Made by a program: the position numbers and the translations under genes. A stretch of 64,000 nucleotides of DNA from Opitutales bacterium (lineage in GTDB: Bacteria; Verrucomicrobiota; Verrucomicrobiia; Opitutales; PNEW01), in the NCBI GenBank assembly GCA_965197745.1, contig CBDANS010000005.1, positions 416,001-480,000 on the forward strand. The letters run 5' to 3'. The notes below the pieces were generated by a model, which made no database searches, was not told the DNA's origin, and saw nothing but the letters and a program-made list of their open reading frames with translations. Below, piece after piece: positions 19,930-49,723 of the stretch. Every line of letters starts with the position of its first letter. Within the stretch, counting starts at the first letter, position 1.

Positions 19930-21232
19930 AGTGAGCACCCTGTGACATTTCCAATAGACGTGTCTAAATCAGAGGAGCAAGCGCTGCCCAATCTTTCAAG
20001 GACGGTATCCTTATTTAAAGAGACACCAGGGGTCAGTACGGGTCATTGCTCCGCTCCAAAAATGTTTCTTTTTTAGCTTCTCGTTGGCACCTCCTTAAGG
20101 GTTGATGGGGTTAAGTTGCAAGCCCAGTGCTTTGGCTTCCAGGCGACCGGTCTGGATCCGCCACCAGTCCACGGCAAACTGCCGGGCCAGGGCCACGATG
20201 ATCTTTTTCTTACGCGCTTTCGTCAGCTTCAAATCGCACAAGTGACGCTCCCACTTTTTAATCGCGTAATAGTCGGGCTGATACACTAACAGCCGCCACA
20301 CGCACTCGATGAGCAAATGGCGTAAGCGACGGTTGCCATGTTTATTGATCGGGCCCTGGAAACGCCGCTGGTTGCTACTGTCTTCACTGGGGCACAATCC
20401 GGTGTAGCTGCCGATCTGGCGGCGGTTTTTGAAACGCTGCCAGTTGCCCACCTCCCGCTCTAAGAGAATGCAGGTCATTTTGCCCAAACCAGTGGGCAGT
20501 CCTTCGGGAGCCTCGGCCTCAATCTTCTTGGTTAGATTCTTGAGCTCCTCATCGATCGCGAGGATGATCCTCCTTAACGGTTCCAACAGCTCACACACCG
20601 TGGGCGGCAGCTGCGCTCGGCAGCGCTCCCACTTGCGGCGGTTCCACCACGGCCCCCGCAGTCGTCCCCCATAATACATGACCTGGCTTCTACCCTGTGC
20701 GGCCAGCCGCTGGCGCTGTCTCATCATACTCTGGCGTTGTCGACTCACACTGCGTTTGCGCTCCTGCTCTTCGCTCGGGACGTAGACCACACTGAAGGCT
20801 TCACGGTTACCGTTCACATAGCGGTCCAAACAAAGGGCCATTTGATGGGCATCGCGTTTGTCCGTTTTGACTTTTTTCCCATACTCGTCCCAGTCGCGCG
20901 GGCGTATCACGTAGTTCTGCACCCCCAGTTGTTTTAACTGTCGATGCAGGCTGTAGCCAAACGGTCCGGCTTCATAGCAGCTGACTATCTGCTGGGCTTC
21001 CTTTACTACTTGCTGTTCTATCCATTTTAGAAACGAAGGGGGACTGAATCGGCGGGGCGCTTTCGGGGTGCCACCGTCTACCATCATAACCACTACATAG
21101 CGGTCGATATGGACATCAATCCCAAGCTTGATTACTTCGGCTTTTGTTTTAACTTCTTTTGTTGATGACGTGGGTTTTTTCATAGGGTTGTCAGGGTTTG
21201 TGATTCGCTCACCCCTGACAATCCCCATGTCA
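19930..21232 (-). mobile_element. IS110-family element with a long 3' non-coding end; boundaries approximate
   Basis: DEDD recombinase gene, structured ~160-nt region downstream, hairpin GATTGTCAGGG...CCCTGACAACC upstream of the start. Confidence 0.7.
20095..21183 (-). CDS. IS110-family recombinase/transposase
   Basis: GIDVH, CYEAGPFGY, KTDKRDA (DEDD) and C-terminal GLCPSEDSS...KHGN. Start set at the ATG at 21183 (MKKPTS). Confidence 0.92.
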   Translation of the reverse strand: MKKPTSSTKEVKTKAEVIKLGIDVHIDRYVVVMMVDGGTPKAPRRFSPPSFLKWIEQQVVKEAQQIVSCYEAGPFGYSLHRQLKQLGVQNYVIRPRDWDEYGKKVKTDKRDAHQMALCLDRYVNGNREAFSVVYVPSEEQERKRSVSRQRQSMMRQRQRLAAQGRSQVMYYGGRLRGPWWNRRKWERCRAQLPPTVCELLEPLRRIILAIDEELKNLTKKIEAEAPEGLPTGLGKMTCILLEREVGNWQRFKNRRQIGSYTGLCPSEDSSNQRRFQGPINKHGNRRLRHLLIECVWRLLVYQPDYYAIKKWERHLCDLKLTKARKKKIIVALARQFAVDWWRIQTGRLEAKALGLQLNPINP

Positions 21233-21267
21233 TCTTTTGACTCTTTCTGGTCACTAGTCTTTTCCCG

Positions 21268-21370
21268 ACACCCGAACCCCGAACCCTGTCCCGAGTCCCG
21301 CGGCCACGGGACGACATCTTCCACCCTGACACCCGAACCCTGAACCGTGAACACTGAACGGTGACACCTA
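21268..21370. repeat. Heptamer-periodic array (ACCCTGA/ACCCCGA-like) interrupted by a hairpin insert
   Basis: cacccga accccga accctg[34 nt] accctga cacccga accctga accgtga acactga acggtga. Confidence 0.8.
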
Positions 21371-21422
21371 CAAGCTTGACTCCATTCTTCTTTGCAGTTC
21401 CATAGCAAAAAAGGTCTAATAA

Positions 21423-33427: not shown

Positions 33428-33844
33428 ATGGAAAAAACCCTCATAATATTTAAGCCTGATTGTATTGATAATAAAAATACTGGAAAAGTGTTACAGCGTT
33501 TTGAACATGAAGGATTTGAAATTTGTGCCTGTAAGATGGTCAAACTGTCCAATGATATTCTTAACGAGCACTATGCCCACCTTCATGAAGTTCCCAATTT
33601 TGAAGCGATTAAGGCTTTCATGGGAAAACGTCCGGTTATTATTATGGTGTTAGAGGCTGAAAATGCGGTGGACAGAATGCGAGCGCTGATTGGACCGACC
33701 GACTCACAAAAAGCTGAGAAAGGCACAATACGGGGAGATATGGGAACGGACAAAATGCGCAATGTGGTACACGCCTCCGATAGCCGGGATAATGCCACAA
33801 AAGAGATTAATAGGTTTTTTTCACGAGATGAGCTATTTAGCTAA
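33428..33844 (+). CDS. ndk: Nucleoside diphosphate kinase
   Basis: KTLIIFKPD, GTIRGD, NVVHASDS. Confidence 0.97.
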   Translation: MEKTLIIFKPDCIDNKNTGKVLQRFEHEGFEICACKMVKLSNDILNEHYAHLHEVPNFEAIKAFMGKRPVIIMVLEAENAVDRMRALIGPTDSQKAEKGTIRGDMGTDKMRNVVHASDSRDNATKEINRFFSRDELFS

Positions 33845-33972
33845 GTGGAGTAGGCGTTAATTGTTCTTATTCTATTGGGCCAGGTTCCGTCGCAGCCGCT
33901 AGTAGTAATAAATAATCCCAACAGTAGATAGAATAAGATTAAAGATAACGGTTATTTTAAGGTAATAAGATA

Positions 33973-34298
33973 ACGAAGACGAAGAGGTATACGGAAATTG
34001 ACAACTATTATTTGCCATTGGAATAAAATTGAGATTATCGCACATACTTCTTAACGGCCACGACGGAGCGTGGCCCTCCAGAATAATAAAAAATTGAGGA
34101 CAATGCATCTTGGCTGTTGTTGTAATATATAAAACAGAAGAATAAAATGGAGGGACGTGATCCATCGCGTCCGTTGAGAGGAACGAGTTCAAATGTCCCT
34201 AAATAATTACTCGATCTTCGTCTTCGTCTACGTCCGCGTTTTCGTCCCCGGGTGTTCACAGAAAGAGGCAATTCAAGGATAATTGGACGAAGACGAAG
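33973..34298. repeat. Composite REP-containing repeat unit, left of the IS110
   Basis: REP-like palindromes at 34055-34080 and 34148-34173 plus CTTCGT/GACGAA hexamer tracts; homologous to 35548-35823 and 49321-49712. Confidence 0.9.
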
Positions 34299-34306
34299 CA
34301 ATTGTG

Positions 34307-35239
34307 TCATGAAGCAAGAGCTAATTGATGTTTTTTAAGAAGGGACTGCAGATGAATAAGGAGTTTTCTCATGGCCGCAACGAGAGCACATTTGTAAGGC
34401 ATTCCCCGATCGACTAACCTCTGCACATAAGGTTTGATCACGGGGTTATGTTGAGCCGCGGTGCGAGCAGCCATATAGAGACATTTTCTGACTTTGGCAC
34501 GACCTCCTTTTATCGATCGCTTAGAATGGGTCTTGCCACTGTCACGATTATAGGGAGCCAGACCGGCAAGAGCGACCAACTGATTGCGGCCCAGATGAGT
34601 CATTTCGCTCATATAAGCCAGGAGGGTCCAAGTCGTCACTTCACCGACTCCTTTGACTGAAGCGATAAGTTCGGCTTTCGCACGCAGTGGATCATTCTCG
34701 TTGATGAGCAATCGCAGCTGTTTGTCGATGCGATCGATTTCGTTCTCAACGAAACGGATCATGCGTTGGATGGAAAGGTGGATGCTCTTGGGACTGTTCT
34801 GCAAGCGGTTCTTCTCGCGGCCAAGCTGTTCGCTCAGATGATGGCGTCGATCCAGTAAAGCAGTCATCTGTTGCTGTTCGGGTGTCGGGGGAGCTGTTGG
34901 GGACAACTGCTTTTGCTGAGCAAAGCGCAGCAATACCTTGGCATCGATCTTATCGGTCTTTGCACGGATGCCATCGCTCGTGGCGAAGGCCCGTACGCGC
35001 GCAGGATTAATCAGGCACACCACAATCTGCGCTTCATGCAAAGCGCTCAACAAGGCGCGCTCGTAGCCTCCTGTGGCTTCGCACACCACAAAGGGGGCAT
35101 CCATCTTTCCTATGGCTTTGAGCAGTTCTTTGAGTCCCGACTTGTCGTTGCTTAGAGCGTAACTTTGCTCTGCACTTTGCACTTGCAAGGTGTTTTTGGC
35201 TATATCTATGGCGATGAGGGTGTGTTTTTTTTCATTCAT
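34307..35239 (-). CDS. IS110-family DEDD recombinase
   Basis: AIDIAK, CEATGGYE, AKTDKIDA and catalytic-serine motif GLAPYNRDSG; uninterrupted 310 aa. Confidence 0.96.
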   Translation of the reverse strand: MNEKKHTLIAIDIAKNTLQVQSAEQSYALSNDKSGLKELLKAIGKMDAPFVVCEATGGYERALLSALHEAQIVVCLINPARVRAFATSDGIRAKTDKIDAKVLLRFAQQKQLSPTAPPTPEQQQMTALLDRRHHLSEQLGREKNRLQNSPKSIHLSIQRMIRFVENEIDRIDKQLRLLINENDPLRAKAELIASVKGVGEVTTWTLLAYMSEMTHLGRNQLVALAGLAPYNRDSGKTHSKRSIKGGRAKVRKCLYMAARTAAQHNPVIKPYVQRLVDRGMPYKCALVAAMRKLLIHLQSLLKKHQLALAS

Positions 35240-35425
35240 GGCTATCTCGGTCTTGTCAAGATGAGCTCGCGGGGGTATAATCCGGGCTCTTTCAATTGTT
35301 TGAGATTAGCCAGGTTAGATCGGAGGTTCCCAGGCTTCGTCTTGAACTCCGCTAACGCGGGTTCCAGAGGCAGAATGAACTCTTCCGATTTGCTCCCGGC
35401 TCCTCTTATTAGGAGTCGGGAGTTC
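35240..35425 (-). ncRNA. Bridge RNA of the IS110 element (5' end approximate)
   Basis: Two stem-enclosed internal loops carry TCTGCCTCT/AAGACGAAG (target) and ACAATTG/ACAAG (donor), which match the insertion site and the element ends. Confidence 0.85.
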
Positions 35426-35547
35426 CTGGCACTCTCAACCGTAGACACTGTTGAAAGCTTTTTCCAGTCCTTCCTCCGACGTGTTACGATGACCCATTCT
35501 CGGAAGGACTCAAAAGGTTGTCTTATCATCGCGGGGTAACCTACAAG

Positions 35548-35823
35548 AGGCAGACGCAGACGAAGAGGTATACGGGAAATGACATATATTAATTGCCACG
35601 GGAATAAAATTGAGATTTTCGATCAAAATTCTTAACGGCCACGACGGAGCGTGGCCCTCCAGAATAATAAAAAATTGAGGACAATGCATCTTGTCCGTTG
35701 TTGTAATATATAAAACAGAAGAATAAAATGGAGGGACGTGCTCCGTCACGTCCGCTGAGGAGGGTCAAGTTCAAATGTCCCCTTATAAGTACTCAATCTT
35801 CGTTTTCGTCTTCGTCTGCCTCT
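35548..35823. repeat. Composite REP-containing repeat unit, right of the IS110
   Basis: REP-like palindromes at 35636-35661 and 35729-35754; closely similar to 33973-34230. Confidence 0.9.
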
Positions 35824-35851
35824 TTGTGTGATCACCGACAAAGGTCGATGC

Positions 35852-36343
35852 TTATTTCTCTTGAGCCATGATGAGGCAGACTGCATGTGTCGCGATCCCA
35901 TCACCCCTTCCGATTTCACCGATCTTTTCGTTGGTCGTCGCCTTTATCCCGAGAGCCGATTCATCTACCCCCAAGGTATTTGAGAGTTTTGTTTTCATCT
36001 TCTTGATATAAGGAGTTATTTGGGGGTTTTCGGCAATTACCGTTATATCAGCATTAGCAAGATAGTAACCATGTGCCTTAATCTCTTCTATCGCTTTATT
36101 TAATATCTTCTGCGAATCAATATCCTTAATGCCTGAATCGGTATTGGGAAAATAATAACCGATATCAGGAAGACCCGCGGCACCCAGTATGGCATCAGCG
36201 AGAGCATGGGTTAGACAGTCTGCGTCAGAATGCCCGTCGAGGCCTTTCTCAAAAGGGATTTTTATTCCTCCAAGGATGAGTTTTCTTCCCGAAACGAGTG
36301 GGTGAATATCGTAACCGCAACCGATGCGAAAGGGTAAAGTCAT
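35852..36343 (-). CDS. ispF: 2-C-methyl-D-erythritol 2,4-cyclodiphosphate synthase
   Basis: RIGCGYDIH, GHSDAD..HA..DA, KATTNE. Confidence 0.97.
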   Translation of the reverse strand: MTLPFRIGCGYDIHPLVSGRKLILGGIKIPFEKGLDGHSDADCLTHALADAILGAAGLPDIGYYFPNTDSGIKDIDSQKILNKAIEEIKAHGYYLANADITVIAENPQITPYIKKMKTKLSNTLGVDESALGIKATTNEKIGEIGRGDGIATHAVCLIMAQEK

Positions 36344-36398
36344 AGTTGCTGATAAATGCTTATAATCTTCAAGGGATCAGAAAGATGAATAGTAGAGC

Positions 36399-37115
36399 TT
36401 AAGACTTATGTGGAAAATCAAGCAGGTTTTCGATAATGGCAATATCTTCCGGGGTCGTTAGTTTATGATTAGATTGTGTGTTTTCCAGCAGACTGACAGG
36501 GTGTCCATATTCTATGATAGCTGTTGTGTCATCAGTCGCTTCAATAGCGTTCTCATGCATATGGCGGTAGGCCGCGGTAATAAGTTCTCGTTCAAATACT
36601 TGAGGTGTTTCCATGGCCCAGAGTCTACTGCGATCGATATTATTTAATTGAAGTTTTCTAAAATCATGGGTGTCTGCATTGATTTCTTTGATCGTATCCG
36701 TTACCTGATGGGCGAGGGTAACTGCTTTATCTATTTCAACCATTTCCTGAAGGGTAATGAGGGAATGGCTGTCGATAAGGGGGCGGGCACAATCATGAAT
36801 AAATACATATTCGATATTTTCCGGAAGCTGTAAGAGGGCATTGTAAACCGAGTGCTGCCGTTCGTTGCCCCCTTGAACCCATAAAATATTCAATGCCGCG
36901 ATGGGATCATTTTCTATGGCCTGTGAGATGCCGACACGTTGAACCTGGTCACGATAAGCGATGATATAAACATCTATGGTCCCACTTCTGGCAAAAGCGG
37001 CCAGGGAATAATTGACGACCGGCTTTCCGAGGAGAGGAACCAGGATTTTATCCGTAACCTGATCACGCATGCGCGCGCTTTTACCCGCACACAATAAAAT
37101 CACCGCGTTAGCCAT
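36399..37115 (-). CDS. ispD: 2-C-methyl-D-erythritol 4-phosphate cytidylyltransferase
   Basis: LCAGKSARM, GG.ERQHSV, IHDCARP, ETPQVF, KLTTPED; adjacent to ispF. Confidence 0.95.
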   Translation of the reverse strand: MANAVILLCAGKSARMRDQVTDKILVPLLGKPVVNYSLAAFARSGTIDVYIIAYRDQVQRVGISQAIENDPIAALNILWVQGGNERQHSVYNALLQLPENIEYVFIHDCARPLIDSHSLITLQEMVEIDKAVTLAHQVTDTIKEINADTHDFRKLQLNNIDRSRLWAMETPQVFERELITAAYRHMHENAIEATDDTTAIIEYGHPVSLLENTQSNHKLTTPEDIAIIENLLDFPHKS

Positions 37116-49301: not shown

Positions 49302-49320
49302 GCGGTATGGGGGATAAATC

Positions 49321-49712
49321 TAAGATTATCGCTCAAACTTCATAACGGCCACGACAACGCGTGGCCCTCCAGGATAAAAAAATGGAGGGCCACGCGTTGT
49401 CGTGGCCGTCGTTGTAATATATAAAACAGGAGAATAAAATGGAGGGACGCGCATAGCCTTGACGATAGCTGATCGCGTCCGTTGAGATGGTCGAGTTCAA
49501 AGAGTCCCAAATAATTACTCGATCTTCGTCTACGTCCGAGTCTTCGTCCCCGGGTGATCGCAGATAGAGGCAAATCAAGGGTAATTGGACGAAGACGAAG
49601 AGGCAGACGAAGACGAAGAAGTATACGGGAAATGACAAATTTTTGCTATGAGAATAAAATTGAGATTATCGATCAAACTTCCTAGCGGCCACGACGGAGC
49701 GTGGCCCTCCAG
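49321..49712. repeat. Composite REP-containing repeat, about 1.2 units of 340 bp, uninterrupted
   Basis: REPs at 49346-49371, 49383-49408 (perfect inverted pair), 49440-49481 and 49686-49711; hexamer tracts; lies between convergent genes. Confidence 0.92.
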
Positions 49713-49723
49713 GAAAATAAACC

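Follow-up and report, generated by a model that had tools for sequence, protein, structure and literature searches.

The window analysed here is a stretch of 64,000 nucleotides (nt) from an Opitutales bacterium (phylum Verrucomicrobiota; GenBank assembly GCA_965197745.1, contig CBDANS010000005.1, positions 416,001 to 480,000 of the forward strand). Its minus strand carries, between 34297 and 35547, a whole insertion sequence (IS) of the IS110 family, which is described below as a probable relative of the bridge-RNA-guided element IS621. These limits include both CT cores and coincide exactly with the points where the identity among the four copies present in the genome stops, the element proper being 34299-35545 (1247 bp). 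Read on the minus strand, the left junction is formed by the flank TCTGCCT (35554-35548), the core CT (35547-35546) and the element start TGTAG (35545-35541), and the right junction by the element end ACAATTG (34305-34299), a second CT (34298-34297) and the flank TCGTCTT (34296-34290). No terminal inverted repeats are found, the two ends (TGTAGG... and ...ACAATTG) being unrelated, and CT stands at both sides in the four copies. An initial annotation, made from the letters of the window, had stated that excising the element rebuilds the target TCTGCCT-CT-TCGTCTT and that its joined ends read ACAATTG-CT-TGTAG; every string and coordinate of this statement has been reproduced. The insertion boundaries are further confirmed by an uninterrupted paralog of the surrounding intergenic repeat in the same window (about 49311-49721), which is continuous across the insertion point, because the paralogous empty site that it contains, TCTGCCTCTTCGTCTT (about 49592..49607, minus strand), has like flanks on both sides.

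The recombinase gene of the element (34307..35239, minus strand) codes for a protein of 310 amino acids with DEDD RuvC-like and Tnp domains, recognised by Pfam matches (PF01548, 2.4e-23 and 83 bits for a cut-off of 29; PF02371, 2.6e-19 and 69.8 bits for a cut-off of 21.3) and by alignment to solved structures. The protein aligns over nearly its full length with the recombinases of IS621 (8wt6, 6.7e-38, 134 bits) and ISCro4 (9t56, 2.7e-38). The predicted catalytic residues D12, E54, D96, D99 and S234 stand opposite the IS621 motifs (chain 8wt6), where the reported catalytic set is D11, E60, D102, D105 and S241 (PMC11208158).

Bridge RNA and guide sequences

A closely related known system is IS621 from Escherichia coli, in which a bridge recombinase works together with a bridge RNA of 177 nt (Durrant et al., 2024; Hiraizumi et al., 2024; PMC11208160, PMC11208158). 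According to these accounts, the left guides of IS621 copy the top strand, the right guides correspond to its reverse complement, and each of them includes the core. The right donor guide lays nine RNA bases on seven DNA bases, with two of them flipped out, and the so-called handshake guides, which are the bases immediately 3' of each right guide, should find their partner at position 7 of the non-cognate DNA, not of the cognate one (PMC11208160, PMC11208158). In the Opitutales element, an IS621-type bridge RNA region of 186 nt is located at 35240..35425 (minus strand), as indicated by both its fold and its covariation. Three parts can be distinguished on this strand: a 5' stem-loop (35422-35393), a target-binding loop module (35389-35319), and a donor-binding loop module (35311-35240). 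The minimum-energy fold of the 186 nt before the start codon consists of a 5' hairpin followed by two modules of stem, internal loop and stem-loop (z = -4.1), and its stems are those that had been written out in the initial annotation.

Covariation across homologous elements had been proposed as a check of this structure. A homolog search of the order covered 201 genomes and found relatives of the element in 24 of them. A covariance model made from the RNA of this element and one relative finds its match immediately before the gene at 16 other loci of the order, and in an element from Babeliales. When 17 distinct sequences were aligned with MAFFT and scored on the structure of the present element, 81.9% of the paired cells can pair, compared with 34-44% when the partners are slid by one to three columns; both sides have changed in 34 of the 47 pairs, and none of 500 shuffles reaches the observed values. 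The scored structure is somewhat favoured in this comparison, since it derives from one of the aligned sequences. A run of RNAalifold that was independent of the given structure recovered four of the helices, in which 18 of 24 pairs are compensated. This MAFFT-based consensus fold lacks the outer stem of the target loop because three distant sequences are misaligned, and that stem was scored with the given structure. The RNA helices therefore covary across the 17 orthologs, and the guide slots are unpaired in the ortholog consensus structure, that is, the guides lie in loops and not in stems.

The first loop contains the two target guides. The left one, UCUGCCUCU (DNA TCTGCCTCT; 35366..35374, minus strand), copies the left target plus core, TCTGCCT-CT; the right one, AAGACGAAG (35335..35343, minus strand), is the reverse complement of core plus right target, CTTCGTCTT (CT-TCGTCTT), and its part GACGAAG (35341-35335) is matched at every insertion. 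Once the terminal 20 nt are removed, the left end contains only two 9-mer matches to the 16-nt target, namely these two guides, one per strand, and any 9-mer match at all was found in 35 of 2000 mononucleotide shuffles of the left-end body. The second loop contains the donor guides. On the left, ACAAUUG (35293..35299, minus strand) copies the last seven nt of the element, core excluded, and matches the donor end in 7/7 bases. On the right, the sequence CU[UG]ACAAG (35250..35260, minus strand), assigned by comparison with the IS621 scheme, would pair discontiguously with CTTGTAG: C35260, U35259 and the bases from A35256 to G35252 account for 7/7 paired bases, with U35258 and G35257 bulged out. 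The initial annotation had thus described both 9-nt guides of loop 1 correctly, as well as the left donor copy and the segment ACAAG (35256-35252) of loop 2; its right donor guide of 5 nt has to be replaced by one of seven paired bases with a 2-nt bulge. It had also compared the donor to that of IS621, and the likeness holds for the right donor (T10 G11 T12 A13 T14 in IS621, PMC11208158; TGTAG here).

The bases that follow the right guides behave as described for the handshake of IS621. C35334, next to the right target guide, can pair with donor G7 and not with target T7, and A35251, next to the right donor guide, can pair with target T7 and not with donor G7. The same crossed arrangement is found in the orthologs. 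At the right donor guide, 15 of 19 loci have a handshake base that pairs with target position 7, and 2/16 have one that pairs with its own donor; at the right target guide, the handshake base fits donor position 7 in 15 of 16 loci and its own target in 1/16. The one locus of the 16 that lacks the pairing with the donor, L094, reflects a mis-pick of the script. Handshake bases switch to G or C, or U, exactly with the change of the partner base. The right donor guide slot also varies with the right donor, and the base opposite donor position 14 follows it (A opposite T14 in L107). As a separate observation, the left target guide ends with CC, CA or CG opposite the CT core in L093, L096, L099, L094, L091 and others, so that the second core base is often unpaired.

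Genomic copies, targets and orthologs

The assembly (4.45 Mb, seven contigs) contains four copies of the element, each of 1251 bp with 0-2 differences and all with open frames of 310 codons, in agreement with the earlier claim that the element is intact. Every one of them is flanked by TCTGCCT-CT to the left and by CT-TCGTC to the right, and positions 6-7 of the right target are TT in two copies and CT in the other two. Other copies lying in unrelated targets despite identical guides had been named as a result that would speak against guidance by the RNA; the target of each of the four copies agrees with the guides. The unoccupied target is also present in the genome, seven times as the 16-mer and 16 times as the 14-mer, for expectations of 0.002 and 0.03, respectively. 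The insertion studied here is placed in a tandem pair of an intergenic repeat of about 332 bp (33899-34296 and 35548-35919, 87.6% alike). When the empty site is rebuilt as single-stranded DNA, a long imperfect hairpin is predicted with the core at an internal loop. Many landing sites are available to the element, because its target is part of one arm of a hairpin-forming intergenic repeat.

Several features of this repeat and of the flanks have been observed besides. The repeat of about 332 bp holds a hairpin, GGCCACG-N6-CGTGGCC, that resembles repetitive extragenic palindromic (REP) sequences, and a core of about 28-33 nt from the repeat is found again dozens of times across both strands of the genome. 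The two plus-strand copies of the element on contig C7 share about 96 nt of right flank (positions 1407530-1407625 and 2016487-2016582 of that contig), the first 40 nt of which are found nowhere else in the genome; their left flanks diverge beyond 12 nt, and both copies have a C-to-T change at the equivalent of window position 35325. The shared right flank could be a short piece of flank that was carried along, or both copies could have landed in a two-copy repeat.

These copies bear on the possibility that the locus is an immobile relic of the IS110 family, in which the guide matches would be fossils of one single past insertion. For such a relic speaks that neither a precise-excision joint nor a circle junction is present in the contigs of four sequencing runs, where the joints observed come from the flanking repeat. 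In addition, run X3 has a single contig across the 5' part of the gene, and 7 nt are missing from it at 35171, within the first 25 codons, which would shift the frame and suggests that related strains may carry broken copies. Against it stand the presence of near-identical copies at four loci with all their frames open, the intact catalytic residues, and the depth of the element unitig, which in three runs reaches about 4-6 times the depth of the flanks (depth not being equal to copy number). In view of these data, a relic is considered very unlikely.

Orthologs provide a further line of evidence. Guides and targets were compared at 18 loci with 15 distinct guide sets, the right target on 15 of the loci. 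On the left, cognate pairs of guide and target agree on average in 6.2 of 7 positions, versus 3.4 for non-cognate pairs; on the right, the respective values are 4.5 and 2.9 of 5. One case is the nearest relative, present in ten copies in an Opitutales metagenome-assembled genome (OY829953.1) with 79-84% protein identity. The left-target-guide slot of this sister element is UCAUCGUCU, three changes away from the guide described above, and its left flanks are TCATCGT-CT in four copies, TCATCGC-CT in five and TCTTCGT-CT in one, so that the ten are within one mismatch of TCATCGT-CT; the C at position 7 of some of these targets would form a rU-dG wobble. No change is seen in its right guide, and nine of the ten copies have CT-TCGTC as right flank. 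Three changes in a guide together with targets changed to match them represent a natural retargeting. Another example is the Babeliales ortholog (33% identity, three copies), which has the same layout and whose own guides match its own ends and flanks. A scan of metagenomes gave only relatives of 33-44% identity, none of them close. Some copies in relatives are damaged: two loci of OY829953.1, L012 and L014, have rearranged left ends, L014 being without part of the inner stem of the target loop.

Taken together, we consider it about 93% probable that the element is an autonomous insertion sequence of the IS110 group which moves by bridge-RNA-guided recombination. This interpretation draws on the anatomy of the element, its conserved catalytic residues, the agreement of the guides with flanks and ends, the covariation of the RNA and of guides with targets, and the near-identical copies. 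By analogy with IS621, the left end would be transcribed into a structured RNA with two internal loops, one of which would pair with the joined ends of the element (donor ACAATTG-CT-TGTAG) and the other with the genomic site TCTGCCT-CT-TCGTC. Bound to this RNA, a tetramer of the DEDD/Ser recombinase would carry out the same chemistry, exchanging strands at the CT core, and a circular form of the element would be inserted. The proposal of a natural RNA-guided recombinase, already contained in the initial annotation, is supported by domains, RNA layout, strand logic of the guides, handshake and covariation, all of which fit it; by the same analogy, the element may be a programmable ortholog.

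Several results weigh against this interpretation. Besides the missing joints mentioned above, a simple promoter scan of the integrated left end found no promoter on the sense strand. A search of Rfam with positions 33500-36500, at E values up to 1, gave no match, and therefore the membership of the RNA in the bridge family rests on our own covariance model and on the published description. The left donor guide has no pairing with the core, unlike in IS621, where one core base is paired. Finally, some single-copy orthologs match their flanks poorly, on the left in L093 (5/7) and L095 (4/7), and on the right in L097 (3/5).

A candidate promoter appears when the ends are joined. The end of the recombinase gene contains, in its last codons, a putative -35 box, TTGCTT (34312..34317, minus strand, read by eye), which in the joined form is followed by a 17-nt spacer and TAGGTT (35543-35538, element nt 3-8; also by eye). 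The combination of TTG and TAGGT(T/C) with a spacing of 16-18 nt recurs in most orthologs, again as judged by eye. A promoter-like site was also noted on the opposite strand, across the donor loop (35253-35281, plus strand; TTGTCA, 17 nt, TATAAT, 11/12), and the count of such sites is within the level of shuffled sequences. Elsewhere in the window, a second and divergent IS110-family gene is present at 20095-21408 (minus strand), with an open reading frame (ORF) of 437 codons that matches PF01548 at 39.7 bits.

Upstream hairpins and the stop-free frame

The left end of the element comprises 306 nt, about 120 nt beyond an IS621-type RNA. The additional part contains a long conserved hairpin, here called SL-A (35461..35515, minus strand; element nt 31-85), whose internal motifs CGAGAAUGG and UCGUCGGAG are near-invariant. 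SL-A is supported by covariation in 16 orthologs: 94.6% of its paired cells can pair, versus 41-55% for slid partners, 15 of 21 pairs are compensated, and the observed values are reached by none of 500 shuffles. The conservation of G-U pairs points to SL-A acting as sense-strand RNA. A second hairpin, SL-B, is located between SL-A and the bridge RNA (35431..35458, minus strand); it is variable in sequence, and was identified from the fold and from complementary arms seen by eye in the orthologs. A possible helix GCCAGG/CCUGGC would close around the 5' stem-loop and the target loop and share three bases with the foot of the donor-loop stem; both sides of this helix have changed in two orthologs (by eye).

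The distribution of SL-A appears to be restricted. Among 73 further loci, the SL-A model matched L090, where the hairpin is displaced, and L101, with weak matches in L057 and L041 (deltaproteobacterial) and a borderline one in L071 (E = 0.052); it matched none of 80 metagenome loci, and the Babeliales element is without SL-A. In L090 (genome G097), about 570 nt of other DNA stand between the conserved upstream hairpin and the bridge RNA. A role of SL-A as competitor of the target-loop stem, by means of UCGGAGG and CCUCCGA, was considered and rejected by eye, SL-A being invariant while the stem varies among orthologs.

The left end is also crossed in its whole length by a stop-free frame of 95 codons (35242..35529, minus strand), from an ATG at element nt 17-19 to a UAG located 2 nt before the AUG of the recombinase. 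This frame has 0-1 stops in 13 of 16 orthologs, and the two remaining frames mostly have 2-10; the frame free of stops in L096 and L107 is another one, F+2. Stops private to one lineage number 16 in the open frame, versus 42 and 36 in the others, and ten of the 16 are in L096 and L107. An in-frame ATG at element nt 17-19, or its equivalent (16-18 in L102), is present in nine of the 16 orthologs, at the point where transcription from a junction promoter would begin. At the recombinase start the frame ends as UAG-CC-AUG, UAA-GCC-AUG or AUGA (by eye), and this start is preceded by only a weak Shine-Dalgarno-like GAGA.

A rival interpretation would be that the left end is mainly a translated leader, which either codes for a small protein or acts as an upstream ORF for coupling, and that the guide matches serve recognition of the DNA by the protein. 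That one frame has been kept open in the clade is in its favour. On the other hand, the differences in the left-end frame fall on codon positions 1, 2 and 3 in numbers of 255, 310 and 305, respectively, without the third-position bias seen in the recombinase gene (e.g., 37, 20 and 88), and a conserved protein is accordingly rejected. Moreover, the helices covary with sense-strand G-U pairs, and a solved RNA-DNA complex has the same guide layout, including the bulge in the right donor guide and the handshake bases. Such a leader in place of a guide RNA is, in our opinion, extremely improbable; the leader and RNA-guide readings are not mutually exclusive. An open frame as a general trait of IS110 elements was rejected as well, since at most one stop in 240 nt was found in 11 of 53 distant loci, for an expectation of 9.3.

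Within the interpretation of a guide RNA, the left-end transcript of this Opitutales-centred clade might be bifunctional, combining an extra 5' domain (SL-A, SL-B and the competing GCCAGG/CCUGGC helix) with a coupling frame, an idea that we regard as rather doubtful. If it were true, ribosomes crossing the guide-RNA gene would unfold the guide RNA and couple to their passage the synthesis of the recombinase, so that each transcript would be either messenger or guide. Translational coupling through the guide-RNA gene is possible, with low confidence, and the main alternative for the open frame is a by-product of GC-rich structured sequence.

Relation to known bridge-RNA systems

The bridge-RNA system of the IS110 family was described in 2024, and the element, which looks recently active, is a further natural ortholog of it in a new bacterial host. 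The recombinase shares with that of IS621 the two Pfam domains and the DEDD and Ser residues; the core is likewise CT, and the left end likewise encodes the RNA, ahead of the gene. The order of 5' stem-loop, target loop and donor loop is also that reported for IS621, as are the 9-nt left target guide with top-strand sequence, the reverse-complement right target guide, the right donor guide with nine bases on seven and two bulged, the non-cognate handshake pairing, and a right donor TGTA(G/T). In contrast to IS621, the protein is distant (roughly a third identical by eye), the right target guide pairs with the core plus five bases (plus seven in two copies) instead of the reported core plus two, the right end of the element is only 8 nt past the stop codon, and the host is an Opitutales bacterium of the Verrucomicrobiota. 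The portions of the published IS621 description available to us mention no counterpart of the approximately 120 extra nt of left end with their conserved hairpin domain.

Other members of the family offer further comparisons. In the IS1111 group, the same recombinase family and guide logic are found with the RNA (the seekRNA, or 3'-encoded bridge RNA) downstream of the gene. The Opitutales element belongs to the IS110 group and not to IS1111, because its RNA is upstream of the gene. ISCro4, or IS622 (9t56; Perry et al., preprint), gave the best match among the solved structures, over the same span as IS621, and is similarly distant. ISPpu9 and ISPpu10 of Pseudomonas putida, reported to target REP sequences, are likewise found in multiple copies at one position of a hairpin-forming intergenic repeat, although the repeat family and the host are different. 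With respect to the family as a whole, guides have been predicted for 32,190 bridge RNAs in a preprint of 2026, according to which 19% exceed IS621 in the number of programmable bases, and abstracts of the same year mention weak expression of bridge RNA and a bias of insertion over excision. This clade, or the extended left end, may already be included in published catalogues of bridge RNAs.

The significance of the element lies in a host phylum that is distant from those of the characterised systems, and in a target pairing that is longer than in IS621 (9 + 7-9 bases). Together with its sister from OY829953.1, it forms a pair that would lend itself to a ready-made swap of specificity. Finally, if the upstream RNA domain and the stop-free frame are functional, they would, in our own framing, bear on how guide RNA and recombinase are balanced from one short transcript.

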